Below the pieces are notes generated by a model, which did no database searches, had not been told where the DNA came from, and worked only from the letters and a program-made list of their open reading frames with translations. Shown here piece after piece: positions 8,298 to 28,956 of a stretch of DNA of 32,780 bases (position 1 is its first letter; each line of letters begins with the position of its first letter). The stretch lies in UHGV virus genome UHGV-0305798, one strand, 5' to 3'. A program made the translations under genes and the position numbers. This DNA comes from a virus.

Positions 8298-9977
8298 ATG
8301 GCGGAAACAACTAAAGAGCGATTGAACAAACAGTTCGCACAACTTGAAAGCGAGCGTCAGTCGTTCGAGCCGCACTGGCGCGAGTTGAGTGATTACATCA
8401 ACCCGCGTGGTTCCCGCTTTCTGACTTCTGAGGTCAACCGTAACGATCGACGCAATACACGCATTATTGATTCGACCGGGACTATGGCGGCGCGCACTCT
8501 CGCCAGCGGCATGATGTCAGGCATCACAAGCCCTGCGCGTCCGTGGTTTCGCCTGGCTACGCCAGATCCTGAAATGATGGATTATGGTCCTGTTAAGTTG
8601 TGGCTCGAGGCGGTGCAGAACCGCATGAACGATATGTTCAATAAGTCGAATCTCTACCAGTCTCTTCCGCAGTTATACGGAAGCCTCGGCACATACAGCA
8701 CTGGTGCAATGGCGGTGCTGGAGGATGACGAGGACATCATTCGCACAATGCCATTCCCGATAGGCAGTTACTACCTGGCTAACTCACCTCGTGGCAGTGT
8801 GGACACCTGTTTTCGCAAGTTCTCTATGACTGTTCGTCAGCTTGTTCAGGAGTTCGGGCTAAATAACGTCAGCGAATCCGTAAAAAGCATGTGGGAAAGC
8901 GGCACCTACGAGAAGTGGATTGACGTGATGCATTCGGTTTACCCGAACATTGACCGCGATACATCGAAGCTGGATAGCAAGAACAAGCCATTCAAATCGG
9001 TTTATTACGAGGTTGGTGGCGATAACGACAAGTTGTTGCGTGAGTCCGGATTTGATGAGTTTCCAATTATGGCTCCGCGCTGGGAAGTTAATGGCGAAGA
9101 TGTTTATGGATCATCATGCCCGGGTATGCTGGCGCTTGGACCTGTTAAGGCATTGCAGCTTCTCCAGAAGCGCAAGTCGCAGTTGATTGATAAAGCCACC
9201 AATCCGCCGATGGTTGCTCCGACTTCCCTCAAGAATCAGCGCGCCTCCCTTCTTCCTGGCGACATCACGTATATCGATCAGATTACTGGTCAGGATGGTT
9301 TCAGGCCTGCTTATCTGGTTAACCCCAGTACAGCAGATCTGGTAGCAGACATTCAGGACACTCGTCAAATCATTAACAGCGCCTACTTTGTCGATCTGTT
9401 CATGATGTTGCAGAACATCAATACCCGCTCGATGCCTGTTGAAGCGGTGATCGAAATGAAAGAAGAAAAACTTCTGATGTTGGGGCCGGTTCTGGAGCGT
9501 CTGAACGACGAATGTCTTAACCCTCTCATTGACCGCGCTTTCTCGATGATGGTGCGTAAAAACATGCTGCCGCCACCGCCTGACGCGATGGAAGGTATGC
9601 CCCTGAAGGTCGAATACATTTCCGTCATGGCTCAGGCGCAGAAGTCTATCGGCCTGTCCAGTCTGGCGTCCACGGTTAACTTCATTGGTCAACTTGCGCA
9701 AGCGAAACCAGAAGCTCTCGACAAACTCAACGTTGATCAGGCGATCGATGCATTCGCTGATATGTCCGGAGTGTCTCCAACCGTCATTGTTCCGCAGGAA
9801 CAGGTTGAGCAGGCTCGCCAGCAACGGGCACAGCAACAACAGCAGCAACAAATGATGGCGATGGGGATGGCGGCGGCACAGGGTGCCAAGACGCTAAGCG
9901 AAGCTAAAACTTCGGATCCGAGTGTTTTGTCAGCTATGGCGAATGCAGTTAGTGGTCAGGGTGGGCAATCACAATGA
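8298..9977 (+). CDS. portal (head-to-tail connector) protein, T7 gp8-like
   Basis: 559 aa; position after terminase; Gln/Ala/Met-rich C-terminal tail (QQQQQQMMAMGMAAAQGA) resembles the T7 gp8 C-terminus (recall-based). Confidence 0.8.
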   Translation: MAETTKERLNKQFAQLESERQSFEPHWRELSDYINPRGSRFLTSEVNRNDRRNTRIIDSTGTMAARTLASGMMSGITSPARPWFRLATPDPEMMDYGPVKLWLEAVQNRMNDMFNKSNLYQSLPQLYGSLGTYSTGAMAVLEDDEDIIRTMPFPIGSYYLANSPRGSVDTCFRKFSMTVRQLVQEFGLNNVSESVKSMWESGTYEKWIDVMHSVYPNIDRDTSKLDSKNKPFKSVYYEVGGDNDKLLRESGFDEFPIMAPRWEVNGEDVYGSSCPGMLALGPVKALQLLQKRKSQLIDKATNPPMVAPTSLKNQRASLLPGDITYIDQITGQDGFRPAYLVNPSTADLVADIQDTRQIINSAYFVDLFMMLQNINTRSMPVEAVIEMKEEKLLMLGPVLERLNDECLNPLIDRAFSMMVRKNMLPPPPDAMEGMPLKVEYISVMAQAQKSIGLSSLASTVNFIGQLAQAKPEALDKLNVDQAIDAFADMSGVSPTVIVPQEQVEQARQQRAQQQQQQQMMAMGMAAAQGAKTLSEAKTSDPSVLSAMANAVSGQGGQSQ

Positions 9978-10270
9978 CAGATTACGAAGACGATCAACTG
10001 AAAGAAGAAAACGCCCGTAAGCAACGTGACATGGCACAGCGTGAAATTGATGACATTCGCTTTGTCATGAGCAGTGAACAGGGGCGTCGCGTTGTCTGGT
10101 CGGTGCTGGAGAAAGGCCGTGTGTTTTCCGCTATCTCACCGATGGACGCTATGGCAATGGCATTTAATGAGGGGCAACGCAATCTGGCGCTGGAACTGTT
10201 TCAGCGCGTTATGGCGCATTGCCCTGAACAGTATTTGAAGATGGCCAAAGAGGCCAGTGAACAGGAGTGA
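9974..10270 (+). CDS. hypothetical head-assembly-region protein (98 aa)
   Basis: ATG overlaps portal stop (ATGA); charged helical protein between portal and scaffold. Confidence 0.5.
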   Translation: MTDYEDDQLKEENARKQRDMAQREIDDIRFVMSSEQGRRVVWSVLEKGRVFSAISPMDAMAMAFNEGQRNLALELFQRVMAHCPEQYLKMAKEASEQE

Positions 10271-10272
10271 TC

Positions 10273-10968: not shown

Positions 10969-10976
10969 GAGAGGAA

Positions 10977-12020: not shown

Positions 12021-12458
12021 ATGATCACCGACAAACTGTTGATGTTCTCCGAAGCACAGGCGGTAACTGATACCGCGGCTTCTACTGAAGTAATCGATCT
12101 CGGTCCAATTGACGGAAACCGTCGCGATATCGGTGTGGGTTACCCGCTTGAGTTTTGGGCGCTGGTTAACGAAGCCGCCACGGCAAGTGGTGAGGCAACT
12201 GTAAACATCCAGTTGCAGACGAGTGAGAATAACAGCTCATGGTCCACTATTTATGATAGTGGCGCACTGGCAAAGGCCACCCTGACAGCAGGTAAGCGAG
12301 TTGTTTCTGCAAAGGTGCCAGCCGGTGTTCAGCGATATCTGCGTGTTAACTACTCCGTCGCAACTGGCCCACTAACGGCTGGCAAATTCACTGCGGGTAT
12401 CAATCTTGATGTTGATGCCAATACGCCGTATCCGATCCGCTCAAAAGTAACTGGTTAA
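12021..12458 (+). CDS. hypothetical virion protein (145 aa), possibly capsid-associated
   Basis: ATG at 12021 after GGAGAAAG; Ser/Thr/Ala-rich; position after capsid gene. Function not supported beyond location. Confidence 0.45.
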   Translation: MITDKLLMFSEAQAVTDTAASTEVIDLGPIDGNRRDIGVGYPLEFWALVNEAATASGEATVNIQLQTSENNSSWSTIYDSGALAKATLTAGKRVVSAKVPAGVQRYLRVNYSVATGPLTAGKFTAGINLDVDANTPYPIRSKVTG

Positions 12459-12468
12459 GGTGATATTG

Positions 12469-12804
12469 ATGTCAGGTGAGAAACCAAGATACCGCGTTCT
12501 GCGCCTCTCTCATATCCATAACACTCTGTGGCCGGAGGGGGCAGAAATCGAATACGAAGGTGAGCCTGGTAGCGCACTGGAACCTGTTAACGATGCAGCC
12601 AGACAGGCAAAAGCAAAGGTAGCGGGAAAGGTGTCAATGGCAGCAACCAGCACCAAAATCATCAACGATGTGTCAGATGATGGTGAACTGGATAAGCTCC
12701 GTGAAGAGTACGAATTGCTCTTTAACGAGAAGCCACACCATAACGCCAAAGCAGAAACGCTCCGCGAGAAGATCGCAGATAAGCGTAAAGAACTGGGCGT
12801 GTAA
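12469..12804 (+). CDS. hypothetical protein (111 aa)
   Basis: ATG at 12469 preceded by AAGGTGA (12460 is GTG); charged helical C-terminus. Confidence 0.45.
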   Translation: MSGEKPRYRVLRLSHIHNTLWPEGAEIEYEGEPGSALEPVNDAARQAKAKVAGKVSMAATSTKIINDVSDDGELDKLREEYELLFNEKPHHNAKAETLREKIADKRKELGV

Positions 12805-12860: not shown

Positions 12861-13466
12861 ATGGCCTCTGTAGTAGAGATCTGCAATCGTGCGCTGTCCA
12901 ATATTGGCAACAGCCGCAGTATTAACAGCCTGACGGAAGCCAGCAAGGAAGCGGGGGAATGTTCGCTGCACTTTGAGGCCTGCCGTGATGCTGTGCTTTC
13001 TGATTTTGACTGGAACTTTGCTACCAAACGCGTGGCGCTTGCAGATACGAGCAATCCGCCGCCAGACTGGGAATACGCATACCAGTACCCGTCCGATTGT
13101 CTGCGCATTACTGAAATTATGCTTCCTGGTGTACGCAATCCAACAGCAGCAATGCGCGTTCAGTACGAAGTTGGTGCAGACACCGACGGAACAGGAAAGT
13201 TGATCTACACAGACCAGCCTCAGGCATGGCTCAAGTATGTCTCTCGCGTTACAGATGTGAACATGTTTGATGCCATTTTTATGGAGGCGTTGGCCTGGCG
13301 TCTTGCGGCAGCTATTAACATGGCGCTGACTGGGAATGCAGACCTCGGTACGTTTGCCCTCAATATGTACAATCGCGTGATTCTTAGTGCTGGCTCGCAT
13401 AGCCAGAATGAATCACAGGAACCACAGCCACCGGTTGACGAGTTTACCATTGCGAGGTTGTCCTGA
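12861..13466 (+). CDS. tail tubular protein A-like (adaptor), putative
   Basis: 201 aa, directly upstream of and overlapping the gp12-like gene; N-terminus (VVEICNRALSNIG) loosely resembles T7 gp11. Call is mainly by position and size. Confidence 0.5.
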   Translation: MASVVEICNRALSNIGNSRSINSLTEASKEAGECSLHFEACRDAVLSDFDWNFATKRVALADTSNPPPDWEYAYQYPSDCLRITEIMLPGVRNPTAAMRVQYEVGADTDGTGKLIYTDQPQAWLKYVSRVTDVNMFDAIFMEALAWRLAAAINMALTGNADLGTFALNMYNRVILSAGSHSQNESQEPQPPVDEFTIARLS

Positions 13467-15937
13467 TGGCTATCAGTTGGATCCAGCCCAGCTTTGCCGG
13501 TGGTGAGATTGGACCGTCGTTGTACGGTCGTATCGACATGGCGAAGTACCAGGTGGCATTGCGCAAGTGCGATAACTTTATCGTGCGGCAGTATGGCGGC
13601 GTTGAGAATCGACCTGGTACGCGTTTTGTCGGTGCCGCCAAATACCCAAATCGGAAATGCCGCCTGATCCCGTTCCAGTTCTCGACGGTTCAGACCTATG
13701 CTCTGGAGTTCGGACACCAGTACATGCGCGTTATCAAAGATGGTGCGTTGGTGCTGAACAGCAGCAATGTTATTTATGAAATTGCCACGCCATATACTGA
13801 AGCCGATCTGTACCGAATTAAATTCACGCAAAGCGCAGACGTGCTTACGCTGGTTCATCCGGCATACCCGCCGAAAGAGTTGCGCCGCTATGCGCATGAC
13901 AACTGGCAACTGGTTGATGTGGTAACGAAGAACGGGCCATTTGAAGATATCAATATTGACGATTCAGTGACGGTTTATGCCAGCGCCAGCACCGGGACAA
14001 TTACGTTAACGGCAAGCGCCTCAATTTTTGGCGCGGAGCAGGTAGGCAAATTGTTCTATCTGGAACAGCCTGCAGTGGATTCTGTGCCGGTATGGGAAAC
14101 CAGTAAGAGTACGTCGATTGGCGATATTCGCCGTGCAGACAGTAACTACTATCGCGCCGTTACAGCAGGCAAAACAGGCACTTTGCGCCCTTCGCATACA
14201 GAAGGCACATCATGGGATGGCTGGGGCGGATCCGGTGATGATGATACCGGCATTGAGTGGGAGTATCTGCACAGTGGTTTTGGCATTGCCCGTATCTCTG
14301 CTGCAAATGGAACTACTGCAACTGCCGAGGTGATTTCCTATATCCCTTCGCAGGTAGTTGGCGAGGATAATGCCAGCTATAAATGGGCTAAATATGCCTG
14401 GAACAGTATTAACGGTTATCCTGGCACTGTTGTTTATTATCAACAACGCCTTTACTTCGCCGCATCGACTGCGTTCCCTCAGACTATCTGGGCCAGCCGT
14501 ACCGGGGATTATAAGGATTTTGGCAAAAGCAATCCTACGCAGGATGACGACAGAATTATCTACACCTATGCCGGGCGTCAGGTTAATGAGATCCGTCACC
14601 TGATTGATGTTGGTTCGCTGGTGGCGCTGACTTCCGGAGGTGAGTACGTCATCACTGGCGACCAGAACAAAGTGCTTACCCCATCATCATTTGCATTCAG
14701 CTCTCAGGGATCAAATGGCTCGAGCAATGTCCCACCAATTGCCGTGGCGAATATTGCTCTGTTCGTCCAGGAGAAAGGCAGTGTTGTCCGTGATCTGGCC
14801 TACTCATTCGATGTTGACGGCTATCAGGGGAACGACCTGACCATCCTTGCCAATCATCTTTTTCAGAAGCACAGCATTGTTGACTGGTGCTTCTCGATTG
14901 TCCCTTACTCCAGCGCCTTCTGCATTCGTGATGACGGTAAATTACTGGTGATGACCTATTTGCGTGATCAGCAGGTTTTTGCATGGGCACCACAATCCAG
15001 TACCGGAAAATATGAAAGCACATGCAGTATCAGCGAAGGCAATGAAGATGCGGTGTATTTCGTCGTTAACCGAACCGTTAACGGGCAAACAGTGAGATAC
15101 ATAGAGCGACTGTCCAGCCGTTTATTTACCAGCGATGAAGATGCTTTCTTTGTTGATTCTGGCCTTAGCTATGATGGAAGAAATACGTCTGACAGAACGA
15201 TGATCGTCACTGGTGGTTCTGGCGAATGGGATTACCGCGCGGAATATACAATCAGTGTTTCTGGTGGTGCGTACTTCACCAGTAGTGATGTCGGTGCTCA
15301 ACTACAGTTCCCTTATACCGGAACTGATCCTGATACTGGCGATGAAGTGTCAAAAGAATTACGTTGCGACATCATTTCTGTAACCAGCAATACCGCTGTA
15401 GTGGTTCGTGCTAACAGGAACGTCCCGCCATCCCTCAGGAATGTGGCTACCACGAACTGGCAGATGGCGCGCCGGACATTTGGAGGCCTGTCTCATCTTG
15501 AAGGCCAGACCGTAAACATTCTCTCTGATGCGAACGTGGAACCACAGAAAGTGGTTTCCGGAGGTGCCGTCACGCTGGAATCACCTGGGGCTGTTGTGCA
15601 CATCGGCCTGCCAATAACTGCTGAATTCGAAACACTGGATATCAACATTAACGGACAGGAAACGCTGCTGGACAAAAAACAGGTGATCCCCTCCGTTACT
15701 CTGGTTGTGAATGCCAGTCGCGGCATCTGGGCGACTACGCCCGGCGGTAAATGGTACGAATATCCACAGCGTGAATTCGAGTTCTACGATGATCCTGTTG
15801 ATGATGCTACCGGAAAAGTAGAAGTGAAACTGGACAGTAACTGGGGCAAAAACGGACGTGTAAGAATCCGTCAGCTTGACCCGTTGCCGCTGTCTGTTCT
15901 TGCCGTTATTCCTCGCCTTACTGTTGGGGGATTCTGA
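13466..15937 (+). CDS. tail tubular protein B-like (nozzle), T7 gp12-like
   Basis: 823 aa; an internal block (FAASTAFPQTIWASRTGDYKDFGKSNPTQDDDRIIYTY...LVALTSGGEYVITG) resembles the conserved region of T7 gp12 (recall-based). Confidence 0.65.
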   Translation: MAISWIQPSFAGGEIGPSLYGRIDMAKYQVALRKCDNFIVRQYGGVENRPGTRFVGAAKYPNRKCRLIPFQFSTVQTYALEFGHQYMRVIKDGALVLNSSNVIYEIATPYTEADLYRIKFTQSADVLTLVHPAYPPKELRRYAHDNWQLVDVVTKNGPFEDINIDDSVTVYASASTGTITLTASASIFGAEQVGKLFYLEQPAVDSVPVWETSKSTSIGDIRRADSNYYRAVTAGKTGTLRPSHTEGTSWDGWGGSGDDDTGIEWEYLHSGFGIARISAANGTTATAEVISYIPSQVVGEDNASYKWAKYAWNSINGYPGTVVYYQQRLYFAASTAFPQTIWASRTGDYKDFGKSNPTQDDDRIIYTYAGRQVNEIRHLIDVGSLVALTSGGEYVITGDQNKVLTPSSFAFSSQGSNGSSNVPPIAVANIALFVQEKGSVVRDLAYSFDVDGYQGNDLTILANHLFQKHSIVDWCFSIVPYSSAFCIRDDGKLLVMTYLRDQQVFAWAPQSSTGKYESTCSISEGNEDAVYFVVNRTVNGQTVRYIERLSSRLFTSDEDAFFVDSGLSYDGRNTSDRTMIVTGGSGEWDYRAEYTISVSGGAYFTSSDVGAQLQFPYTGTDPDTGDEVSKELRCDIISVTSNTAVVVRANRNVPPSLRNVATTNWQMARRTFGGLSHLEGQTVNILSDANVEPQKVVSGGAVTLESPGAVVHIGLPITAEFETLDININGQETLLDKKQVIPSVTLVVNASRGIWATTPGGKWYEYPQREFEFYDDPVDDATGKVEVKLDSNWGKNGRVRIRQLDPLPLSVLAVIPRLTVGGF

Positions 15938-16401
15938 TGATCGACGTTCAAATTATTCCCGCTACCGAAGAGCATCTTCAGATGATTTTGCCGGATATTC
16001 GTCAGGCTGATATTGAAGAACTGTATGCGGTATCGCTGATGACTACCGAAGATGCACTGCGTGTTGGCCTGCGTACTGCGACTATGGCCTGGTCAGGGTT
16101 CGCGAACGGAGAACTGGTAACCATGTTTGGTGTATCTCCGGCGTCAATGATCGGTGGCAATGGTACGCCCTGGCTGGTAGGAACCAGCCGTATTGAAAAA
16201 TATCAGAAGACATTTCTTCGCCACTGCCACCCTGTATTGCGGCAGATGCTGGCAGTTTATCCGCGCCTGGAAAACTACGTCGACGAGCGAAACCATGTTG
16301 CCAAAGCATGGCTCCACTGGCTTGGATTCAGGCTTGAAGAAGCCGCGCCTTATGGTGCTCTTGGTCTTAATTTCCACAGATTTCACATGGAGAGAAAATA
16401 A
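15937..16401 (+). CDS. hypothetical virion-module protein (154 aa; gp13 position)
   Basis: ATG overlaps upstream stop; lies between the gp12-like and gp14-like genes. Confidence 0.45.
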   Translation: MIDVQIIPATEEHLQMILPDIRQADIEELYAVSLMTTEDALRVGLRTATMAWSGFANGELVTMFGVSPASMIGGNGTPWLVGTSRIEKYQKTFLRHCHPVLRQMLAVYPRLENYVDERNHVAKAWLHWLGFRLEEAAPYGALGLNFHRFHMERK

Positions 16402-19723: not shown

Positions 19724-22700
19724 TGCCGATATATGAACAGGATCCTAAAGAGTTGCTTGGCGAGGATATTCAGCAAATAGCAGCACCTGATGACAGTAAT
19801 TTCTATATGGAAACACCTTCTTTGCTTTCTGCTGTGAACCCATTTACCAGTGAGCAACGCGTTCAAAGGTCTAGACAAGCAGCATTTCGTATAGATAACA
19901 CGCTGGGTAGCTTTATTGCCAGTGCTCCTTTCAGTCAGTTTGACAGGGTTGAAGGATATAACCCATTTGATAACGATGCAGCAGATATTAAAGGCTATGA
20001 AGATTTTGCAGATTCGTTTATCAACTCCGGTTCGCATGAAGAAACAATGGCAATTAAACATCGAATCGATAAGCAAAGAACAGATAGAGAATATCTATCT
20101 GAAATGGGTGGTGCTGGTACTATTTCAAGCTTAGCAATGGGAATGATAGACCCGGTTAATGTGGCTGCAATGTTCATCCCTGTAGGGGCGGTAGCGCGTG
20201 GAGGAAGTATTGCTGAGACGGCAGGGCGTTTTGCCCTGGCGAATGCTGCTGGTGGGGGAGTATCAGAAGCCGCATTACAGGCCACTCAGGAAGCTCGCTC
20301 ACCGATGGAGAGCGTATCGAACGTTGTTGTTGATGCTCTCGTTGGTGGGATCCTTGGTGCTGGTGCACAGCTACTTGCTGGACCTAGCGCGCGCGAGGCA
20401 GTGGTTAACTCAGTAGGTAATCATTTGCGAGGTATGGATTCTCCTCAAAGCATTGGTGCAGCTCAGGTTTTCAATACCACACTCGATCAGGAACAGCTCG
20501 CTGGACTTGGACTTGCTAACAAAACGTTGAGTGTCACTCCTGCTGGCCGCTTGGCGCAATCACCATCTCTTGTCTCCCGTCAGATTAACCAGCAGCTTGC
20601 CGAAAATAACTATTTCTTCGCCAAAAATGATGAGGGGTTGGCTACGTTTACGGCAGTCGAGACTAAGATTAAGCAATACGACGCCATGCTTTATAAGCAG
20701 ATGGAAGCTACTCGTGATGCTTACCAGCAGTACAGCAAATCTGTCAGCGCCCGCGGCGTGAAGAGGATGAACTTTATTGATTTCAATGAAGCTGTTGGCA
20801 TGGCTATGCGCCGTGGTGATCAGAGTGATATTCCTGAGGTTTCACAAGCAGCCGCCAGAATCCGCCCCATTTTTGAGACCACAAAAGCCCGTATGCAGGA
20901 ATTGGGGATCCTTCCTGAGGATATCGATGTCGTGACGGCGAAGAGTTATCTTCCCCGCATTTATAAGTTCGATAAGATACTTTCCGACCGCACTGAATTC
21001 AGAGGGCGAATTGCCAACTGGATACAAGGGATTAGTGCCAAAGGTGCTGACAAAGCAGGTCAGCGAATTGAAAAGATAAATTCATTGCTAAAAACTGCAG
21101 AGGAATCAGCACCGCGCGCTGATGCTCTCGCTAGTGAAATCGCTGAAGCGGAGAAATGGTCTGGTAAAAAAATTCTACTCATGGAAGAACTGGATAAACG
21201 AAATAAGCTTATATCTCAGGAGACTGACACACAGGCGCGTCTTACAAGAATAGAAAAAGAGTTGGCCGAGACTTCATCAGAAAAACTTCAGGCAAGAATG
21301 ATGAAAGAAAGCTCTGACCTTAAAACACGCCTTGATGATATAGCGCAGGCAAAGAGTGAGCTTCCTGTCTATCAGCGCCATATGGAGTTGCTGGATAATC
21401 CACGGAAATATCGTTCTGAGCTTCGCCGACTGCAAAAACGGGCAAATTCAACCACAAGGCTGAATGCAAGCCGCGAGCGAGCACTGAAGCAGATGGAGCC
21501 TCTATCCCGAGAGGAAGCAGAGGACGCTGCTGACGAGATCGTGAATAAAATAATAGGCGCACCTTCCGGGCTTGTACCAGCCGATATTATCCCAGAGAGA
21601 CTCGTTGGTCGGGCTGGTTTCACTAAAAGCAGAACGCTGCTTATTCCTGATGAGCGTATAGAAGATTTTCTTGAATCAGATGTTAACTACATCATGGAAA
21701 GTTATCTCCGGCAGGTGGCACCAGAAATTGAGCTGACTGCGCAGTTTGGCCGTAAAGATATGGGGGAGCAAATCCGTCAGGTTAGTGAGGAATATACCCG
21801 GCTAATAAAAGAGGCTAAAACACCTAAACGACGTGCAGTTCTTGAGAAGCAACGGGAGGCTGATATTAGGGATATTACGGCTATGCGTGATCGACTGCTT
21901 GGTACTTACGGTGCACCTCAAGATCCACGCAGTTTCTTTGTTCGTGCCGGGCGAGTTGCTAGGAATATTAACTTCCTCCGTTTGCTTGGTGGAATGACTG
22001 TCTCCGCTGCAACTGATCTGATGCGACCGATGATGCAGCATGGCCTGAGAAAATCTCTCGGACCAATGGTAAGCATGCTTAAAAATATGGACTCAGTAAA
22101 AATTGCAACCAGGGATTTGCGAGAAATGGCAGTTGGGCTTGATTATGTCCTGTCTACGCGTACAAAGGCTATAGCGGATCTTACTGACCCCTATAGCCGG
22201 AGAAGCGCCGCTGAGCGAGGTCTGAACTGGATGACGCAGAAATTCGGTAACTGGACGCTGATGAATCAGTGGAACAGCGCACTTAAATCATGGTCTGGGA
22301 TGATAGTGCAGTCGAGGATACTTGACGCGGCTCGCCAAGTTTCTGCTGGTGGCACGCTCTCCAAAAGTGAAATGCGGAAGATGGCACAGGTCGGCATCAA
22401 TGAAGATGTTCTGCGCCGAATCGGGGAGCAATTCGGGAAGCACGGAGAGGATATGGACGGGCTGTTAACCGGGCATAGTCATCTGTGGGATGACCGTTTC
22501 GCTAGAGAGATTTTCCAGTCTGCAGTGCTGAAAGATGTAGACTCAGTGATTGTAACGCCTGGCGTAGGTGATACACCGCTGTTTTTTAGTAAAGAAGGCT
22601 GGAAGATGATCACGCAGTTCAAAACGTTTATCTTCGCACAGCATAACAGGGTGCTGGTATCTGGTATCCAGCAGGGCGATGCTGCATTCTATCTTGGTGC

Positions 22701-23112
22701 GCTTGGCACGATTGCGCTTGGCTCAATGGTCTATATGATGAAACAGAAGTTAAGCGGTCGCGATATCGACTACAGCTGGAATAACCTTGTGAAAGAGGGG
22801 ATCGACCGGGGCGGAATGCTTGGCTGGCTCTCTGAGCCGCTGAATACCGTTGAGAACATAAGCGGCGGTAGGTTTGGTCTTGGCGCGATGTTTGGTGCGC
22901 CTCCGGTATCAAGGTTTCAGAGTCGTAATGCTATTGGTGCTTTACTTGGTCCTACCTTTGATCTTGGCGGTGATGCCGCGACGGTTGCAAATGGTGTACT
23001 TAACGGAGAATTTGACAGCCAGCAAACCCACGCTGTCCGTAAAATGCTACCTTTTCAGAATCTGTGGGCGATATCACCATTACTAAATAAAGTTGAAGAG
23101 CAGATGAAATAG
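19723..23112 (+). CDS. internal core/ejection protein D-like (gp16 position), 1129 aa
   Basis: Largest ORF in the module, in the gp16 slot; long charged coiled-coil centre and Gly/Ala-rich hydrophobic segments. No transglycosylase motif recognised. Confidence 0.6.
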   Translation: MPIYEQDPKELLGEDIQQIAAPDDSNFYMETPSLLSAVNPFTSEQRVQRSRQAAFRIDNTLGSFIASAPFSQFDRVEGYNPFDNDAADIKGYEDFADSFINSGSHEETMAIKHRIDKQRTDREYLSEMGGAGTISSLAMGMIDPVNVAAMFIPVGAVARGGSIAETAGRFALANAAGGGVSEAALQATQEARSPMESVSNVVVDALVGGILGAGAQLLAGPSAREAVVNSVGNHLRGMDSPQSIGAAQVFNTTLDQEQLAGLGLANKTLSVTPAGRLAQSPSLVSRQINQQLAENNYFFAKNDEGLATFTAVETKIKQYDAMLYKQMEATRDAYQQYSKSVSARGVKRMNFIDFNEAVGMAMRRGDQSDIPEVSQAAARIRPIFETTKARMQELGILPEDIDVVTAKSYLPRIYKFDKILSDRTEFRGRIANWIQGISAKGADKAGQRIEKINSLLKTAEESAPRADALASEIAEAEKWSGKKILLMEELDKRNKLISQETDTQARLTRIEKELAETSSEKLQARMMKESSDLKTRLDDIAQAKSELPVYQRHMELLDNPRKYRSELRRLQKRANSTTRLNASRERALKQMEPLSREEAEDAADEIVNKIIGAPSGLVPADIIPERLVGRAGFTKSRTLLIPDERIEDFLESDVNYIMESYLRQVAPEIELTAQFGRKDMGEQIRQVSEEYTRLIKEAKTPKRRAVLEKQREADIRDITAMRDRLLGTYGAPQDPRSFFVRAGRVARNINFLRLLGGMTVSAATDLMRPMMQHGLRKSLGPMVSMLKNMDSVKIATRDLREMAVGLDYVLSTRTKAIADLTDPYSRRSAAERGLNWMTQKFGNWTLMNQWNSALKSWSGMIVQSRILDAARQVSAGGTLSKSEMRKMAQVGINEDVLRRIGEQFGKHGEDMDGLLTGHSHLWDDRFAREIFQSAVLKDVDSVIVTPGVGDTPLFFSKEGWKMITQFKTFIFAQHNRVLVSGIQQGDAAFYLGALGTIALGSMVYMMKQKLSGRDIDYSWNNLVKEGIDRGGMLGWLSEPLNTVENISGGRFGLGAMFGAPPVSRFQSRNAIGALLGPTFDLGGDAATVANGVLNGEFDSQQTHAVRKMLPFQNLWAISPLLNKVEEQMK

Positions 23113-23113
23113 G

Positions 23114-23965
23114 ATGAAAAAAATAAATTTGTTTTTTGGCATAGTGCTTTCAATAGTCTCTGTAAATCCTACAGCTGCCAGTTCATTGCAATGCAATAAG
23201 GATAACTTTGATGCATGCAAAACGTGCGAACAATTATCAAAGGCTATCGACTTAAAAGAACCTAATCGTGGCGATTACTATAGAGGGGCTTTATGGAATG
23301 GGCTTTACGCCTCTTATGTAATTAATTGCCCTGTGGTTGCAGAGAAGTTACTGAGCCATGGTGCTATACCATCATATGGCGGATATATGGGGTCTATGGG
23401 GGCGGTTCTGACAGGAAAATGGCCTCATAACAATGAATCAATAAATCTTTCATGGGCAGATTTGCTTATAAAACATGGATTTGATGTTAATAGGCATACG
23501 GGGAATTATAAATCAGCTACTGAAGTATGGGCTATAGATAAAAAACAGATTGAATATAAGTCAGTTTTTGACAAGTTAATTCAATCCAGCGAAGTAAAAC
23601 CACTCGATCCTTCAAGAAATTTAGAATGGTGTGCGTCTGAAGGGTATCGCTCAGTTGTCGTTTATTCCCTTAACTCATGTATAGAAAATGCTATAAAACG
23701 TTTGGATGACGGTGTTTCTTCAGCGTCTGATATTTCATCAGCAGCCGTAAATTCCTGTACTAGCGATGTAGAAAATTTCAATAAGCATTTGGCATGCAAA
23801 GCAGCTGTTAAAGAAAACTCTGATAAAGAGAGAAGCAACGTTTACCAGTTATTAACCAGTGATAGTCAAATGAATAAAAATGTTATTGATATGCTGAAGG
23901 AAAGAAATATTGAAACGGTTCTTGAATTTAGAGCTGAAAATCGATCAGCGAAAACTGCACAGTGA
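23114..23965 (+). CDS. AT-rich secreted protein (283 aa), accessory gene
   Basis: Sec-type signal peptide (MKKINLFFGIVLSIVSVNPTAAS), several Cys, and visibly lower GC than flanking genes (by eye); followed by a strong terminator. Confidence 0.6.
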   Translation: MKKINLFFGIVLSIVSVNPTAASSLQCNKDNFDACKTCEQLSKAIDLKEPNRGDYYRGALWNGLYASYVINCPVVAEKLLSHGAIPSYGGYMGSMGAVLTGKWPHNNESINLSWADLLIKHGFDVNRHTGNYKSATEVWAIDKKQIEYKSVFDKLIQSSEVKPLDPSRNLEWCASEGYRSVVVYSLNSCIENAIKRLDDGVSSASDISSAAVNSCTSDVENFNKHLACKAAVKENSDKERSNVYQLLTSDSQMNKNVIDMLKERNIETVLEFRAENRSAKTAQ

Positions 23966-23971: not shown

Positions 23972-23997
23972 AGGCCGCTTTCGCGGCCTTGTTTTTA
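23972..23997 (+). terminator. rho-independent terminator after the secreted-protein gene
   Basis: GGCCGC-tttc-GCGGCC hairpin followed by TGTTTTT. Confidence 0.55.
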
Positions 23998-24156
23998 ACG
24001 AATGCCACCGCCGCCCGGACGGGAATCCGCAGAACGCCCACCGCAGCGGGAGCCGTCAGCGGCAGTATCGCTGTCGTGCTGACAACGACCGGCAAAGGCC
24101 TGAGTTGAAGCTACCAGAGACAACAAAACGAACAGTGCAGCAAATGCTTTTTTCAT
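23995..24156 (-). CDS. small secreted peptide (53 aa), putative
   Basis: Minus-strand ATG at 24156 gives MKKAFAALFVLLSLVASTQAFA (signal peptide) then a Gly/Arg/Asp-rich mature region with two Cys. Weak RBS; the longer ORF-track start looks spurious. Confidence 0.35.
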   Translation of the reverse strand: MKKAFAALFVLLSLVASTQAFAGRCQHDSDTAADGSRCGGRSADSRPGGGGIR

Positions 24157-24228
24157 TGTGAAATTTCCATCTATAAGCCACCTCAATGTGGCGTCAATGA
24201 GTGTAGCACTGACTTTTGTTTCGTCCAC

Positions 24229-24249
24229 AAAAAAGCCCGCGCTGCGGGC
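24229..24249 (-). terminator. rho-independent terminator (minus strand) after the 210-aa gene
   Basis: Minus-strand GCCCGC-agc-GCGGGC followed by TTTTTT, 5 bp past the stop codon. Confidence 0.5.
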
Positions 24250-24254
24250 TTCTA

Positions 24255-24887
24255 TTAATGCAGTTTATCTTTGCTTATAACCAGTAGTCTGTGGGTATGC
24301 ACATCTTTATCACTGCCCCAACAGAAATCAGCCCACTGGCTATAGAAATCATCCCATGATGTCATGAAGCTAAGAGGTCTATCTTCTTCAGAGCCATCTG
24401 AAACGTATACATTATATCCTGGGGTGTTTATAGCCCAAGAAATCATTCTTTCCCAGAATCTTCTCCCATCGATTGTTTGTTGCTCATCAGATACAACGAT
24501 CGCATATTGCTCTAGGAAGAACTGAAAAAAAATCTGAGGCAAACCATGAACAGCACGGTCATGAATAACATTAGGCGTACGCCATACCATGATCTGCGTA
24601 CATGTTCTTTTGGCTTCGACGATATCTTCCCGAAAGATTAACTTAACCGCATACACCGTTTCTGGAGTATCGCTGGTAGTAATCATTCTGTAATGATCGC
24701 CATTACAAGATTTTACAAGGCGATAACCATAAGGTGTTGTGAATCCCGGAAGAACGAAATCAACCACACCTTTCGCTAAGTAGCTTTCGGTGTGACTAGT
24801 GTTCTTCTCAGACATGTTCAGTTTTCTATCGAAATCTGCTTCTGGGATAATGTATGGCATCGCTTTTCTTGTTGTATTTGTTCTCAT
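24255..24887 (-). CDS. hypothetical protein (210 aa), reverse-strand accessory gene
   Basis: ATG at 24887 preceded by GGGAGG at 5 nt; own terminator downstream and palindromic site upstream; AT-rich by eye; no family recognised. Confidence 0.6.
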   Translation of the reverse strand: MRTNTTRKAMPYIIPEADFDRKLNMSEKNTSHTESYLAKGVVDFVLPGFTTPYGYRLVKSCNGDHYRMITTSDTPETVYAVKLIFREDIVEAKRTCTQIMVWRTPNVIHDRAVHGLPQIFFQFFLEQYAIVVSDEQQTIDGRRFWERMISWAINTPGYNVYVSDGSEEDRPLSFMTSWDDFYSQWADFCWGSDKDVHTHRLLVISKDKLH

Positions 24888-24946
24888 TTCGTCCTCCCAT
24901 GTTTGGCTACAGGACGCGTTTTGAAGGGAAGATTAAAAATGCTTTC

Positions 24947-24961
24947 TTACCCTTGAGGTAA
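24947..24961. promoter_or_regulatory. palindromic site TTACC-CTTGA-GGTAA (copy C)
   Basis: Read directly; about 60 bp upstream of the 210-aa gene start. Confidence 0.4.
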
Positions 24962-24997
24962 TAGTACGCTATTCACCCCCAGTCTGCAATCTGTACA

Positions 24998-25025
24998 GAA
25001 TTATTTAAAGGCACATCCCTGTGCC
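24998..25025 (-). terminator. possible terminator (minus strand) after antirepressor gene
   Basis: Minus-strand GGCAC-agggat-GTGCC followed by TTTAAATAATT; moderate. Confidence 0.35.
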
Positions 25026-25033
25026 GCCGCCCG

Positions 25034-25726
25034 TCAGAAGAACCCTGCCTTGTCGTTGATGTACTCCGCGTGGGTCTGGATATCACGCAGGCATTTGCTC
25101 ACACCAACGATGTAGCAGAACATGGTGGTCAGCTCCGCCGCCGCGCCCGATACGTCGTGCCCGTCTTCCTGTAACTGGTTCAGCAGATTCATCAGCAGTG
25201 AGTTCTCCGTCAGGCCGAGAACACCAGACGGAGAATGAATCAGGCTGCGGTAGCCGGGCTTCAGCGGGGCGCTGTAGGTTTTGTTCTCTATCTTCATTGC
25301 CTGCATCACTGCTGATGCTGTGGCGTTTGCAACCTGGTCGGCAACCATCTTTATGCGTTCTTCCTGCGGGAGCGAGTTTTTAATGTAACTTCCGGTGCGG
25401 CGGATCTGAGGAAGAACCTCACCTGTAACCCATTCAAGAAATCTGAATGCTCTCGTTCCCTCAGTCATTGCCTCTTTGCAACGCAGAATAAGGATGTAGA
25501 GACCTGATTCTGAAACGATGGATAGTTCTTGTATTCCACCAGGGGTCTGTATTGAATACAGCCCCTTTTTGTTCCAGCCTTTTTTATCAAGTTTTCTCGC
25601 TTGTGTAACATCAATATTCAAAGCATTGCACACATCTTTGGTGACAAACCAAGGTTCTCCGTCAATCATGAACATACGGATCTGGCAGGATGACTCAAAG
25701 GAAAAGATGGAAGGTTTGGTATTCAT
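25034..25726 (-). CDS. Bro-N domain antirepressor-like protein
   Basis: N-terminus (MNTKPSIFSFESSCQIRMFMIDGEPWFVTKDVCNALNI) matches the BRO-N signature of phage antirepressors; start at 25726 after AAAGGTGA (the ORF-track start 25771 adds 15 aa). C-terminal 70 aa are paralogous to the small gene at 26040..26297. Confidence 0.75.
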   Translation of the reverse strand: MNTKPSIFSFESSCQIRMFMIDGEPWFVTKDVCNALNIDVTQARKLDKKGWNKKGLYSIQTPGGIQELSIVSESGLYILILRCKEAMTEGTRAFRFLEWVTGEVLPQIRRTGSYIKNSLPQEERIKMVADQVANATASAVMQAMKIENKTYSAPLKPGYRSLIHSPSGVLGLTENSLLMNLLNQLQEDGHDVSGAAAELTTMFCYIVGVSKCLRDIQTHAEYINDKAGFF

Positions 25727-25880
25727 GGCGATCACCTTTGTAGTTAGGTTAATCACCACCGCTGAGACCAATCAGATGGTGGTGAACTGTGCAGAGTTGG
25801 TCTTACCGGCTACAAAGGAACCCGGCGCACCTTTCGGTGCCCCCACACAGCCCACCATAGAATAGGTGCGCTTTACACAT

Positions 25881-25906
25881 AAAAAAACCGCTTATGCGGC
25901 ATATGT
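25881..25906 (-). terminator. possible terminator (minus strand) downstream of the small LexA-box gene
   Basis: Minus-strand GCCGC-ataa-GCGGU followed by seven U; short stem, so moderate. Confidence 0.35.
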
Positions 25907-25993
25907 GCCTCTGTAGTAATCCGGGAGACCAATCCCGGCACTGGATTTTGCCAGTGCCCGATTACTATGGCACAAGAGGAGTGCGATGTAAAT

Positions 25994-26008
25994 TTACCGC
26001 AAAGGTAA
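25994..26008. promoter_or_regulatory. palindromic site TTACC-GCAAA-GGTAA (copy D)
   Basis: Read directly; extended palindrome ATTTACC-GCAAA-GGTAAAT; lies between the antirepressor and the small paralogous gene. Confidence 0.4.
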
Positions 26009-26039
26009 ATATAAGCACTCCATTTGGTAATTGCAAACC

Positions 26040-26297
26040 TTATCTGGTTTGTTTTCGTAATTGTTCGGCACAATAGTCGAGATGTGTTTGCAGATCCTGC
26101 ATAGACATCTGTGAGCTGGTGACGTAGTTAATCAGTGCAGTCAGTTCGGCAAGTGGGCCATCGACATTAAATCCATCCTTATCGAGATCCCGGAGTAATT
26201 TCATCAAGTGCGATCCCTCCACCAGTGACCTGACGCCTCCCGGCGTGTGAATCCTTTCGGTAAATCCGTCTTCCAGTGGATAGTGATACTGCTGCAT
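26040..26297 (-). CDS. small antirepressor-like protein (Tum-like, about 85 aa)
   Basis: About 40% identical by eye to the C-terminal domain of the adjacent antirepressor (shared IH-P-GV, AELT, DxQTHxxY motifs). ATG at 26297 has GGAG at 9 nt; alternative ATG at 26312. A LexA box lies immediately upstream. Confidence 0.6.
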   Translation of the reverse strand: MQQYHYPLEDGFTERIHTPGGVRSLVEGSHLMKLLRDLDKDGFNVDGPLAELTALINYVTSSQMSMQDLQTHLDYCAEQLRKQTR

Positions 26298-26317
26298 CTT
26301 AATCTTCTCCATGCAAT

Positions 26318-26337
26318 AACTGTATATTTATACAGTA
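26318..26337. promoter_or_regulatory. LexA (SOS) box
   Basis: AACTGTATATTTATACAGTA matches the CTGT-N8-ACAG consensus (TACTGTATATATATACAGTA) at 18 of 20 positions; sits just upstream of the small antirepressor-like gene. Confidence 0.7.
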
Positions 26338-26374
26338 TCAAATAATTTGTTTGCTATCCAGCACGTTTTGAAAA

Positions 26375-26389: not shown

Positions 26390-26493
26390 TATCTATTCAT
26401 ATTCACAGTCTTTCTATCCATATATGGTTTTTTGGGTAATAGAATAACCAGATATGCGGCGCAACGGGTGCTGCGACTATCTGGAGATTTAAC

Positions 26494-28956
26494 ATGACGG
26501 TCTCAACCGAAGTTGACCACAACGAATACACAGGTAACGGCGTTACGACATCATTTCCGTATACCTTCCGTATTTTCAAAAAATCCGACCTGGTTGTTCA
26601 GGTGTCTGACCTTAACGGTAACGTTACAAAACTAGTGCTGGATGCTGGTTATACGGTAACAGGGGCGGGAACTTATAGTGGCGGTGCAGTGGTTCTTCCG
26701 TCGCCGCTTGCTGCTGGCTGGCGAATCACGATAGAGCGTGTGCTTGATGTGGTGCAGGAGACTGATCTTCGCAATCAGGGAAAATTTTTCCCCGAAGTTC
26801 ATGAGGATGCATTTGACTACCTGACGATGCTGATCCAGCGATGTTTTGGGTGGTTCAGACGTGCATTGATGAAACCATCTTTGCTTGCAAAATATTACGA
26901 TGCAAAGCAAAACAGAATATCTAACCTTGCAGATCCATCATTTGAGCAGGACGCTGTAAATAATCGCTCAATGCGCAATTATGTCGATGCTGCAATCGCC
27001 GGGGTTGTTGGTGGTTTTGGTTGGTTTATTCAGTATGGTTCTGGAGCGGTATACAGAACACTCCAAGATAAGATGCGTGATGGTGTCAGCATTAAGGATT
27101 TTGGAGCTCAAAATGGAATCTTAAATGATAACAAGGAGTCTTTTACAAAATCATCACATTCGTTTAGCAGTGTTTTTGTTCCGGAAGGGGTATTCAATAC
27201 ATCTTTAGTTTCTCTTTCACGTTGTGGCTTGTACGGAACAGGTGGGGGAACGATAAAACAGTATGACAGAGATGGTAATCATCTGGTTTTTAACATGCCC
27301 GATGGTGGCATGCTTAGTACGCTAACAATTATGGGAAATAAATCAGATGATAGTGTGCAGGGACACCAGGTGTCATTTTCAGGTGGCCATGATGTATCGG
27401 TTAAAAATATCAGATTTACAAATACGCGAGGACCAGGATTTAGCTTGATCGCTTATCCGAATAATGGTATTCCGTCAGGTTACATTGTTAGAGATATAAG
27501 AGGAGAGTATTTAGGGTTCGCAAATAATAAAAAAGCAGGTTGTGTGCTTTTTGATTCATCGCAAAACACGCTAATTGATGGTGTGATAGCCAGAAATTAT
27601 CCTCAGTTTGGTGCAGTGGAACTTAAAACAGCAGCAAAATATAACATTGTCAGCAATGTTATTGGTGAAGAGTGTCAGCACGTTGTTTACAATGGAACTG
27701 AGACGGAAACTGCCCCAACGAATAATATCATTAGCAGTGTAATGGCTAACAACCCAAAATACGCCGCAGTAGTTGTTGGCAAGGGGACTGGTAACCTGAT
27801 TTCGGATGTGCTGGTTGATTACTCTGAATCGGACGCAACGCAGGCGCACGGCGTCACCGTTCAGGGAAATAATAATATTGCCAGTAATATTCTAATGACT
27901 GGGTGTGACGGGAAAAATGAATCAGGAGATCTGCAGAAATCTACAACCATTCGTTTCTTAAATGCTGCAGGCAGTAATTATGCGTCAATATTCCCCATGT
28001 ATAGTTCTTCTGGCGTGGTTACCTTCGAGGAAGGGTGTATCAGGAACTTTGTTGAAATTAAACATCCGGGTGATAGAAATAATATTCTGAGTTCTGCATC
28101 AGCGGTGACTGGTATTTCCAGTATAGACGGCACTACAAATAGCAATGTTGTTCACGTCCCTGCGCTTGGTCAGTACATTGGGACTATGTCAGGGCGTTTT
28201 GAATGGTGGGTTAAATATTTTAACCTTGCTAACCAGACGCTTGTTTCTGCAGATAAATTCAGAATGCTTGCTGAAGGAGATGTATCTCTGGCTGTGGGAG
28301 GCGGTATAAGGTCGCAATTGAAATTATTCAATAGTGATAATACTAAAGGCACTATGTCGCTAATAAATGGAAATATTCGAATATCTACTGGAAATTCAGA
28401 ATATATACAGTTTTCTGATTCAGCCATGACACCATCGACAACGAATACTTATTCTCTTGGGTTGGCTGGTCGTGCATGGTCGGGGGGATTTACCCAGTCA
28501 GCGTTTACGGTGCTGTCCGATGCGCGTTTCAAGACTGCTCCAGAGGTTATTGATGAGAAAATACTGGACGCATGGGAAAGAGTGGAATGGGTTTCATACC
28601 AGTACCTTGACAGGATCGAAGTGAAAGGTAAAGACGGAGCAAGATGGCACTTTGGTGCAGTTGCGCAGCATGTTATCAGTGTATTTCAGAATGAAGGCAT
28701 AGATGTGTCACGACTGGCATTTATCTGTTATGACAAGTGGAATGAGACCCCGGCAGAATACAGGGATGTGACGGAAGAAGAGCATTCTGCAGGAGTTTAC
28801 CCACTTATACAGACAAAGGTTCTGGTACGCGAAGCCGTCGAGGCTGGTGAATGTTACGGTATCCGTTATGAAGAGGCTCTGATTCTGGAATCTGCGATGA
28901 TGAGACGCAGGGTTAAAAAGCTGGAAGAGCAAGTTTTGCAATTAACAGGGAATTGA
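26494..28956 (+). CDS. tailspike/tail fiber with T7 gp17-like N-terminal domain and C-terminal intramolecular chaperone domain
   Basis: N-terminal 110 aa follow the T7 gp17 particle-binding pattern. Central region is Gly/Asn/Thr-rich with repetitive beta-strand-like segments, consistent with a beta-helix. C-terminal block (SDARFKTAPEVIDEKILDAWERVEWVSYQY...WHFGAVAQHV...EALILESAMMRR) matches the self-cleaving chaperone domain (peptidase S74-like) of endosialidase-type tailspikes. Confidence 0.85.
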   Translation: MTVSTEVDHNEYTGNGVTTSFPYTFRIFKKSDLVVQVSDLNGNVTKLVLDAGYTVTGAGTYSGGAVVLPSPLAAGWRITIERVLDVVQETDLRNQGKFFPEVHEDAFDYLTMLIQRCFGWFRRALMKPSLLAKYYDAKQNRISNLADPSFEQDAVNNRSMRNYVDAAIAGVVGGFGWFIQYGSGAVYRTLQDKMRDGVSIKDFGAQNGILNDNKESFTKSSHSFSSVFVPEGVFNTSLVSLSRCGLYGTGGGTIKQYDRDGNHLVFNMPDGGMLSTLTIMGNKSDDSVQGHQVSFSGGHDVSVKNIRFTNTRGPGFSLIAYPNNGIPSGYIVRDIRGEYLGFANNKKAGCVLFDSSQNTLIDGVIARNYPQFGAVELKTAAKYNIVSNVIGEECQHVVYNGTETETAPTNNIISSVMANNPKYAAVVVGKGTGNLISDVLVDYSESDATQAHGVTVQGNNNIASNILMTGCDGKNESGDLQKSTTIRFLNAAGSNYASIFPMYSSSGVVTFEEGCIRNFVEIKHPGDRNNILSSASAVTGISSIDGTTNSNVVHVPALGQYIGTMSGRFEWWVKYFNLANQTLVSADKFRMLAEGDVSLAVGGGIRSQLKLFNSDNTKGTMSLINGNIRISTGNSEYIQFSDSAMTPSTTNTYSLGLAGRAWSGGFTQSAFTVLSDARFKTAPEVIDEKILDAWERVEWVSYQYLDRIEVKGKDGARWHFGAVAQHVISVFQNEGIDVSRLAFICYDKWNETPAEYRDVTEEEHSAGVYPLIQTKVLVREAVEAGECYGIRYEEALILESAMMRRRVKKLEEQVLQLTGN

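Follow-up and report, generated by a model that had tools for sequence, protein, structure and literature searches.

We analysed a 32,780-nucleotide stretch of the UHGV virus genome UHGV-0305798 (the window), with emphasis on the virion genes at positions 8298–28956. The window holds the right-hand ~31 kb of a prophage of the phiV10 type, an ordinary member of the genus Uetakevirus, whose named species in the RefSeq records are phiV10 (NC_007804) and epsilon15 (NC_004775, the type species). It consists of one long series of plus-strand genes, with reverse blocks after the gene for the large terminase subunit (TerL) and at 23995–26335. The Uetakevirus order of small terminase subunit (TerS), TerL, portal, capsid, adaptor, nozzle, internal proteins, reverse block, spike, and lysis genes was found throughout. 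Genes named below lie on the plus strand unless marked otherwise. All virion genes listed in a first-pass annotation, made from the sequence alone, were confirmed where it had placed them, on the plus strand and in the same order. To that list we added a gp13 homolog (15937–16401) and the opposite-strand block at 23995–26335, which interrupts the module.

The assignment to an ordinary phiV10-type prophage follows from DNA and protein identities to phages, the attachment (att) core, the host flank, and the frequency of the element in E. coli genomes. In a megablast search of 8298–28956 against phage records, the best match was EC.W1-9 (PP445227), with 97.9% DNA identity over 87% of the length. 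The phages phiV10, TL-2011b, phiv142-3, and the O157 typing phages matched with ~97% DNA identity over ~50% of this region, and Enterobacter, Salmonella, and Klebsiella relatives matched more weakly. From TerS through the gp14-like protein, the encoded proteins were 94–100% identical to those of phiV10 and 37–95% identical to those of epsilon15, with gene order conserved in both comparisons. At least 80% of the window from 8000 to 32780 was present in at least 114 of 5426 complete E. coli genomes, including strains of sequence type 131 (ST131). The right end of the prophage is marked by an exact match to the att core (attR, 30937–30953, ATTGAGTGGGAATGATT), which occurs once in the window, with zero occurrences expected by chance; the host genes yfgI, yfgH, and yfgG lie past it. 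The same core has been reported for phiV10, epsilon15, and ZX5 (PMC9782041); integration through it at the 3' end of guaA is usual for the genus. Judged from these similarities, positions 8298–28956 and the lysis genes very probably represent the late operon of an apparently intact Uetakevirus prophage at its usual site beside guaA in E. coli.

The terminase genes precede the portal gene, as the first-pass annotation had proposed, and differ in type from those of T7. TerS (4748–5422; PF03592 Terminase_2, E 1.4e-29) and TerL (5419–6894; phrog_2 'terminase large subunit', E 1e-52) are each 99.6% identical to their phiV10 counterparts, p01 and p02, respectively. TerL is not of the T7 gp19 type and had no BLASTP match to T7 gp19; a comparison with PDB sequences yielded no solved relative by sequence. 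Instead of a gp18/gp19-type terminase at the right genome end, as in T7, the element has a PF03592-type TerS, and both genes lie upstream of the portal. The epsilon15 terminase was grouped with those of siphoviruses by Hardies et al. (PMC4819975).

The head genes start with the portal (8298–9977; PF12236 Head-tail_con, E 1.8e-187), a member of the T7 gp8 family. The portal and T7 gp8 gave reciprocal phrog_332/phrog_449 matches, and the portal of the Cobetia marina phage Carin-1 (8CK0) was matched with E 1.4e-178. A gene for a Bbp19-like small protein follows (9974–10270; PF25181 Phage_Bbp19, E 2.8e-17). The next gene, located between portal and capsid, encodes a scaffold candidate of 231 or 233 residues (10267/10273–10968), for which zero matches were obtained in Pfam, NCBIfam, or the PDB. 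This protein has a conserved N-terminus, then a Pro/Ala/Asp/Lys linker of variable length, and a helical C-terminal domain. Its AlphaFold2 model (mean predicted local distance difference test score, pLDDT, of 53.7) comprised a short N-terminal helix, disorder at residues 15–87, and an all-helical part at residues 99–229. A Foldseek search of the PDB with this model returned only matches with E > 5, and these allowed no assignment to a protease fold or to the fold of a known scaffold. Similarity to T7 gp9 was not detected either, the two proteins falling in different PHROG families (phrog_458 versus phrog_1052). Thousands of public records label the 231-residue protein 'peptidase' or 'endoprotease', a label for which neither a domain nor a fold gave support. 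'Scaffold' would be the better guess, and the widespread 'peptidase' at the portal–capsid gap is probably a mis-annotated scaffold.

The major capsid protein (10977/10983–11969; PF20911 GP7, E 2.1e-149) belongs to the epsilon15 gp7 family. It is 99.7% identical to phiV10 p10 and 43% identical to epsilon15 gp7, and its PHROG family (phrog_212) differs from that of T7 gp10 (phrog_267). Downstream lie the genes for a Bbp16-family capsid cement protein (12021–12458; PF21190 Bbp16, E 7.8e-48) and an epsilon15 gp9-like small protein (12469–12804) that is 100% identical to phiV10 p12. The capsid staple gene (phiV10 p13/epsilon15 gp10; GP10 in PDB 3J40) had no tblastn homolog in the window. Its absence is a clean indel between 12804 and 12861; in phiV10, the gene is ~320 bp long and follows p12. 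EC.W1-9 is also without a staple gene.

The tail begins with an adaptor at the position of T7 gp11 (12861–13466; phrog_394 'tail protein'), which matched the Carin-1 Connector Protein (8CK1_E, E 2.1e-26). The adaptor is followed by the tail nozzle, a gp12 homolog (13466–15937; phrog_376 'tail protein') that matched the Carin-1 Tail Nozzle (8CK1_A, E 4.5e-216). The nozzle is only a remote homolog of gp12, the two being in different PHROG families. For the epsilon15-group nozzle and gp12, a comparison of hidden Markov models with E < 1e-10 has been published (Hardies 2016, PMC4819975). An AlphaFold2 model of the nozzle, based on an alignment of 16 sequences with at least 82% identity, had a mean pLDDT of 40.1 and was unusable for fold search. 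A scan of viral contigs with the nozzle alignment recovered only copies that were 99–100% identical.

Four internal virion proteins are encoded next. Internal virion protein A (15937–16401, 154 residues) belongs to phrog_308, the family of T7 gp13. Internal virion protein B (16401–16976, 191 residues) scored 33.7 bits against PF24072 T7_gp14 (cut-off 27), in line with its earlier description as gp14-like. The 915-residue protein at the gp15 position (16976–19723; phrog_1044) possesses a lytic transglycosylase domain; its residues 247–399 matched the N-terminal domain of Gp29 in 9VVP (E 3.9e-35) and the endolysin 7Q47. The 1129-residue internal protein D (19723–23112) belongs to phrog_342, the family of T7 gp16. 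It covers positions 192–1227 of that family, so it is without the N-terminal transglycosylase part. Pfam matches of this protein to DUF919 (46 of 1129 residues) and DUF724 (far below the cut-off) were short and unconvincing, and were disregarded. The 1129-residue family, with 5561 cluster representatives, occurs widely among prophages of Enterobacterales. Its representatives were matched directly by T7 gp16 (E 2.7e-7) and by phiV10 p20 (E 3.4e-9). Proteins of 1129 residues recorded as 'DUF919' or 'hypothetical' are predicted to be gp16-type ejection proteins. In a protein collection clustered at 90% identity, the 915-residue and 1129-residue proteins shared one 2342-member cluster with a representative of 1129 residues. 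This joint cluster is probably an artefact of fused or mis-called genes, which matters for homolog counts.

The core of phiV10 and epsilon15 consists of three proteins (phrog_992, phrog_1145, and phrog_684; 837, 600, and 824 residues in phiV10). Residues 1 to ~500 of the 915-residue protein were 45% identical to phiV10 p18 and epsilon15 gp15, and the remainder was unmatched. Neither the 1129-residue protein nor the 283-residue protein encoded after it had a BLAST counterpart in phiV10 or epsilon15. The gp14-like protein could be aligned with phiV10 p17 over residues 1–170 of 191 only, which places the left junction of the core swap inside its last ~20 residues. The two-protein cassette (~16910–23965) recurs in EC.W1-9, in the Klebsiella phage ST512-KPC3phi13.3, and in 120 complete E. 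coli genomes. We propose, tentatively and with rather less than even confidence, that one genus with near-identical heads and tails harbors two interchangeable, mutually unalignable ejection forms, and that the sub-lineage described here is in addition without the gp10 staple gene. One form would be the three-protein epsilon15/phiV10 set, the other the 915-residue transglycosylase together with the 1129-residue protein, which is nearer to T7 gp16. No description of two ejection forms within one genus was found in the literature searched. Should both prove functional with one and the same nozzle and gp14 body, they would constitute a natural swap experiment on the contacts that the ejectosome needs.

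The tailspike gene (26494–28956) encodes an attachment domain (residues 1 to ~166), a K5 lyase beta-helix (residues ~199–675), and a chaperone domain (residues 675–820). Residues 1–165 were 68–70% identical to the phiV10 and epsilon15 spikes, and the N-terminal domain was matched in Carin-1 with E 4e-30. The N-terminal ~160 residues share phrog_1640/phrog_27277 with the N-terminus of T7 gp17, which supports the designation of the protein as a gp17-like tailspike. Residues 199–675 aligned with residues 66–542 of the K5 lyase KflA (2X3H, E 1e-182), reaching the end of the KflA chain. The spike also matched 9VVR (E 2.5e-223), and its lyase region gave a weak match to PF13229 Beta_helix. At the C-terminus, PF13884 Peptidase_S74 was detected at residues 675–735 (E 1.4e-13), and the KflA crystal chain ends at the aligned boundary. 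The spike is thus a predicted K5-capsule (heparosan) lyase with a self-cleaving chaperone domain. Its K5-lyase part is present in 68 complete E. coli genomes with an identity of at least 99%, and its exact sequence was seen on 2 contigs only. The K5 lyase ElmA is presumably 820 residues long and may be identical with the spike. ElmA, the chromosomal K5 lyase of E. coli K5, is listed as prophage-borne in a review (PMC3594737). A K5-lyase spike is relevant to capsule-specific host range in lineages of extraintestinal E. coli (e.g., ST131) and to heparosan processing.

The lysis cassette (29029–30826; PF16931 Phage_holin_8) encodes a holin-like membrane protein, a holin, an endolysin, and Rz/Rz1 spanins. 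These proteins were 84–98% identical to phiV10 p27–p30, and the endolysin is annotated as GH19 in a RefSeq relative. The first-pass annotation was right that lysis genes follow the tailspike. The contrast with T7 that it drew from this placement, however, applies only to the endolysin, since in T7 itself the holin gene comes directly after gp17, with the spanins close by.

An antirepressor region occupies the reverse block next to the spike gene. The Bro-N antirepressor gene (25034–25771, minus strand; ~230 residues, likely start at 25726; PF02498 Bro-N, E 2e-13; phrog_130 'anti-repressor Ant') encodes a protein 75% identical to phiV10 p23. Upstream of it on the same strand lie a C4 antisense RNA (25775–25862; Rfam RF01695, 78.6 bits, gathering threshold 45) and the isrK small RNA (25881–25957; Rfam RF01394, 74.7 bits, gathering threshold 50), with a sigma-70-like promoter near isrK (25992–25964, minus strand). 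The same two RNAs were detected in phiV10 and EC.W1-9, where neither is annotated; they are absent from epsilon15, which has no Bro-N gene. On the far side of the RNAs is a gene for a small gp19-like protein of 85 or 90 residues (26040–26312, minus strand; 85 residues from 26297), followed by a terminator. Its product was 98% identical to phiV10 p24 and 84% identical to epsilon15 gp19. A LexA box, CTGTATATTTATACAG (26320–26335, an exact CTGT-N8-ACAG), lies 8 nt from the first ATG of this gene. In five genomes (the window, phiV10, EC.W1-9, the DETEC-S566 prophage, and epsilon15), the arms of the box were invariant and the spacer was variable. No LexA site is annotated in the epsilon15 and phiV10 records.

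The antirepressor had been described at first as LexA-controlled. The LexA box was confirmed, but it fronts the 85/90-residue gene and not the Bro-N gene. Bro-N is predicted not to be under direct LexA control and sits behind the isrK and C4 RNAs. The C-terminal domain of the antirepressor has a paralog in the 85-residue protein (42% identity to Bro-N residues 160–237, E 6e-17), a candidate SOS-induced mini-antirepressor. A relationship to Tum of phage 186 was considered and rejected in favor of this paralogy (E 0.053 in a single BLASTP comparison). Release of LexA would induce the 85-residue protein, which would inactivate a helix-turn-helix (HTH)-type repressor, and full-length Ant (Bro-N) would be under RNA control. 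The order isrK–C4–Bro-N mirrors the P1 immI arrangement. It likewise mirrors the isrK-orf45-anrP layout of Gifsy-1 (PMC4825925). Overexpression of the Bro-N protein of ZX5 promotes lytic growth (PMC9782041). Uetakevirus appears to pair a mini-antirepressor under LexA repression with a full-length antirepressor under RNA control, a possible route of SOS induction.

Accessory genes were found at several places. The Cys-rich, secreted 283-residue protein (23114–23965; phrog_6118) has a signal-peptide-like N-terminus and a gene GC content of 0.38. It is followed by a terminator (23972–23989) at the end of the core operon and resembles a moron more than it does a virion protein. One UniRef name for it is 'ankyrin repeat', and the Klebsiella relative has a different gene, of 204 residues, at this position. 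The minus-strand interval 23995–24887 encodes a small secreted peptide (~53 residues from MKKAFAAL; phrog_3117/phrog_14503) and a 210-residue protein (phrog_1349). It is a variable accessory slot, because a YafO-family toxin gene takes its place in DETEC-S566, the E. coli prophage closest to this one. PADLOC found no defence-system match among the accessory genes, the HNH gene described below excepted.

The early region had been characterized as carrying Ea22-like, DUF551-like, and HNH genes. The Ea22 (PF13935, E 9e-38) and DUF551 (E 3e-21) genes were readily identified. The third, a gene for a 154-residue protein (160–624), fell below the Pfam HNH cut-offs but matched the PADLOC HNH models of ZorE (Zorya) with E 9e-12, and its product is probably a phage HNH endonuclease. 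Between the terminase and portal genes, a transfer RNA (tRNA) gene, tRNA-Arg(TCT), is located on the minus strand (7573–7649). The same tRNA was detected in phiV10, EC.W1-9, and the Klebsiella relative; in the phiV10 RefSeq record, a hypothetical coding sequence (p04) is annotated over it. The minus-strand 140-residue gene at 6985–7407 (phrog_4846) had no tblastn match in phiV10, EC.W1-9, DETEC-S566, or epsilon15. Since these four carry other genes there, the position is a variable slot. A second exact CTGT-N8-ACAG, at 7442–7457 just upstream of the 140-residue gene, is probably not a LexA site: its spacer contains G/C, it adjoins a terminator hairpin, and it is absent from epsilon15.

The relationship of the virion genes to T7 is a distant one. 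Pairwise BLASTP of the window proteins against T7 gp7.3–gp19 gave nothing significant, and shallow-profile hhalign and hmmsearch comparisons of the 1129-residue family and the nozzle with single T7 sequences were weak or non-significant. The shallow profiles were replaced by deeper, two-sided profiles of nine diverse epsilon15/BPP-1-group phages and 19 T7-group loci. These were compared by hhalign in a 9 × 9 matrix, in which the 72 non-cognate comparisons served as controls (lowest E 0.018). Five of the nine cognate pairs beat all 72 controls: portal/gp8 (E 4.1e-14, probability 98%, 442 columns), 1129-residue internal virion protein D/gp16 (E 2.0e-11, 97%, 449 columns), 154-residue protein/gp13 (E 8.9e-6, 83%, 94 columns), nozzle/gp12 (E 1.6e-4, 50%, 244 central columns), and, weakly, gp14-like protein/gp14 (E 2.2e-3, 13%, 79 columns). 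The values for scaffold/gp9 (0.2), capsid/gp10 (0.17), adaptor/gp11 (0.14), and 915-residue protein/gp15 (0.10) were at background. PHROG families were common with T7 for gp13, gp16, the gp17 N-terminus, and, through the reciprocal portal matches, gp8.

The virion module had been called T7-like in the first-pass annotation, with a gp8-like portal, a scaffold, a capsid, a gp11/gp12-like tail, a gp14-like protein, and two giant core proteins. This holds at the level of deep homology but not at that of BLASTP. The portal, the gp12 and gp14 counterparts, and the larger core protein (gp16) withstood the comparison, whereas the gp15 counterpart did not; for the gp11 counterpart, our profiles stayed at background and an HHpred note in the epsilon15 record favors the relationship. 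A scaffold candidate and a capsid gene are present, but their relation to T7 gp9 and gp10 was not upheld. No phage single-subunit RNA polymerase was found among the open reading frames (ORFs) of the window or in family scans, the left arm of the prophage being outside the window, or among the annotated genes of the complete relatives phiV10 and EC.W1-9. Because the complete relatives have no such polymerase, the element is not a member of the T7 family; rather, an ancient tail and ejection ensemble is shared. The resemblance to T7 very probably goes back to a common origin, long ago, of the tail and ejection ensemble of podoviruses, and a recent recombination is not its source. Deep T7 kinship of the epsilon15 group has already been published (Hardies et al. 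2016, PMC4819975), and our results reproduce it.

It is improbable that the element is a defective, cryptic prophage remnant that has kept its virion genes and makes no particles. Such a remnant would fit the visibility of only the right ~31 kb, the missing counterpart of the phiV10 staple gene, and the rarity of the exact spike sequence. However, no structural ORF is truncated or frameshifted, all being full-length relative to phiV10 or to EC.W1-9, an isolated phage. Nor is there any damage to the att core, the regulatory RNAs, or the LexA box. Furthermore, EC.W1-9, which was isolated from sewage, has the same module, including the missing staple gene and the core cassette. The P4-type integrase and HTH repressor of the left arm are present in near-identical relatives; the arm itself lies beyond the window.

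Several points weigh against an apparently intact prophage with a T7-related virion. The left ~9 kb, with the integrase, repressor, and replication genes, is outside the window, and intactness goes beyond what the window shows. For all functions and for particle production, we infer from homology. In principle, a capsid without the staple could be weaker, although EC.W1-9 is likewise without it. The 231-residue protein is a probable scaffold on the basis of its position, its composition, and a low-confidence model. Finally, the adaptor shares no PHROG family with T7 gp11 and its profiles against gp11 stay at background, so that their putative homology derives from a note in the epsilon15 RefSeq record, in which gp11 is related by HHpred to T7 tail tubular A (3J4B).

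The element had also been described as a mosaic temperate podovirus. A temperate podovirus prophage is supported by the att core and the host flank, but the layout is the conserved Uetakevirus one and not an unusual mosaic: the terminase genes ahead of the portal, the lysis genes behind the spike, the Ea22 and DUF551 genes of the early region, and the LexA box all occur in phiV10 and/or epsilon15. In a stronger version, a T7-like (Autographiviridae) phage would have been the recent donor of the structural module, which then recombined into the backbone of a lambdoid prophage; the terminase and lysis genes would have come from elsewhere. The co-linearity of portal through gp17 with T7 would agree with such an acquisition, as would the early genes common to lambdoid phages and the membership of the 1129-residue protein in the PHROG family of T7 gp16, to which epsilon15 gp17 and phiV10 p20 do not belong. 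We nevertheless consider it very unlikely. No T7 protein is similar by BLASTP, and there is no T7 signal for the capsid, the scaffold, the adaptor, or the gp15 position. The terminase and structural genes are 94–100% identical to those of phiV10 as a single block, and the complete relatives are without a phage RNA polymerase. The order terminase, portal, capsid, tail, internal proteins extends to Pseudomonas MPK9, Xanthomonas CP2, Pelagibacter Skadi-3, and Bordetella BPP-1. The 1129-residue family is not specific to the T7 group, because it is widespread (5561 cluster representatives). Identities and profile scores already point to the epsilon15/BPP-1 clade, outside Autographiviridae.

A P22/Sf6-like podovirus in place of an epsilon15-like one can be dismissed almost entirely: although the epsilon15 TerL RefSeq note cites HHpred similarity to Sf6 gp2, the phiV10 gene after TerL resembles Sf6 gene 66, and trees in a review (PMC8954989) group the epsilon15 gp14/gp16 counterparts with those of P22, this identity is refuted by a portal in PF12236 (the T7 gp8 family), a capsid in the epsilon15 gp7 family, nearest solved portal and nozzle structures that are those of Carin-1 and not of P22, and the absence of any P22 or Sf6 record among the megablast matches listed, which were Uetakevirus-type Escherichia, Salmonella, Enterobacter, and Klebsiella phages.

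The prophage is, then, a recurrent Uetakevirus sub-variant, marked by a core cassette of two proteins, the absence of the gp10 staple gene, and a spike with a K5 lyase. Each of these three differences from phiV10 recurs in EC.W1-9 or in 68–120 complete E. coli genomes. Its genus is well described, and public phage and genome records already contain the features in which it varies. As first stated, the finding rediscovers the published epsilon15/phiV10 architecture and its deep kinship with T7.

By homology, the gene products might work together as follows. The non-T7-type TerS/TerL would package DNA into an HK97-fold capsid (gp7 family), which would be built on the probable scaffold and cemented by the Bbp16-type protein. 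The gp8-type portal would carry the adaptor and the gp12-type nozzle. Six trimeric spikes would be anchored by N-terminal domains of the gp17 type and would cleave a path through the K5 (heparosan) capsule. At infection, the gp13-like, gp14-like, 915-residue transglycosylase, and 1129-residue gp16-like proteins would be ejected and form a trans-envelope channel.

Among known systems, EC.W1-9, an unclassified phiV10-like phage, shares with the window the block encoding the 915-, 1129-, and 283-residue proteins, the absence of the staple gene, the isrK–C4–Bro-N cassette, the LexA box, and the tRNA. It differs in the receptor-binding part of the spike (625 residues, annotated 'eliminase'), which could not be aligned beyond residue ~190, and in the accessory genes between the core block and the spike. 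With phiV10, the window shares gene-for-gene synteny from TerS to Rz, the att core, the LexA box, the isrK/C4 RNAs, and the lysis cassette. However, phiV10 has a gp10-like staple gene, an O157-specific spike, and an O-acetyltransferase gene, and its three core proteins are replaced in the window by two core proteins and the secreted 283-residue protein. Epsilon15 has the same architecture, with the adaptor (gp11) 86%, the nozzle 88%, the portal 81%, and TerL 95% identical, and a LexA box upstream of gp19. It differs in its capsid (43%), three-protein core, serotype-conversion genes, and spike, and in having neither Bro-N nor isrK/C4. KflA of coliphage K5A is the lyase of a lytic phage, whereas the lyase of the window is joined to the attachment domain of a Uetakevirus spike.

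T7 is co-linear with the window from gp8 to gp17, with homology for gp8, gp12, gp13, gp14, gp16, and the gp17 N-terminal domain. It also has a transglycosylase domain in an internal protein and holin and spanin genes downstream of the fibre gene. In T7, however, the transglycosylase is part of gp16, whereas here it is part of the protein at the gp15 position. There is no pairwise similarity between the two, and the capsid, scaffold, adaptor, and gp15 are unrelated or undetectable. The terminase is of another type and in another place, and the window element is temperate, with relatives that have no RNA polymerase gene. The closest solved virion is that of Carin-1 (8CK0/8CK1), whose portal, nozzle, adaptor, and spike N-terminal domain all match. 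Carin-1 differs in being a marine phage with a different depolymerase spike (Dpo31), and its ejection proteins are not at high resolution.

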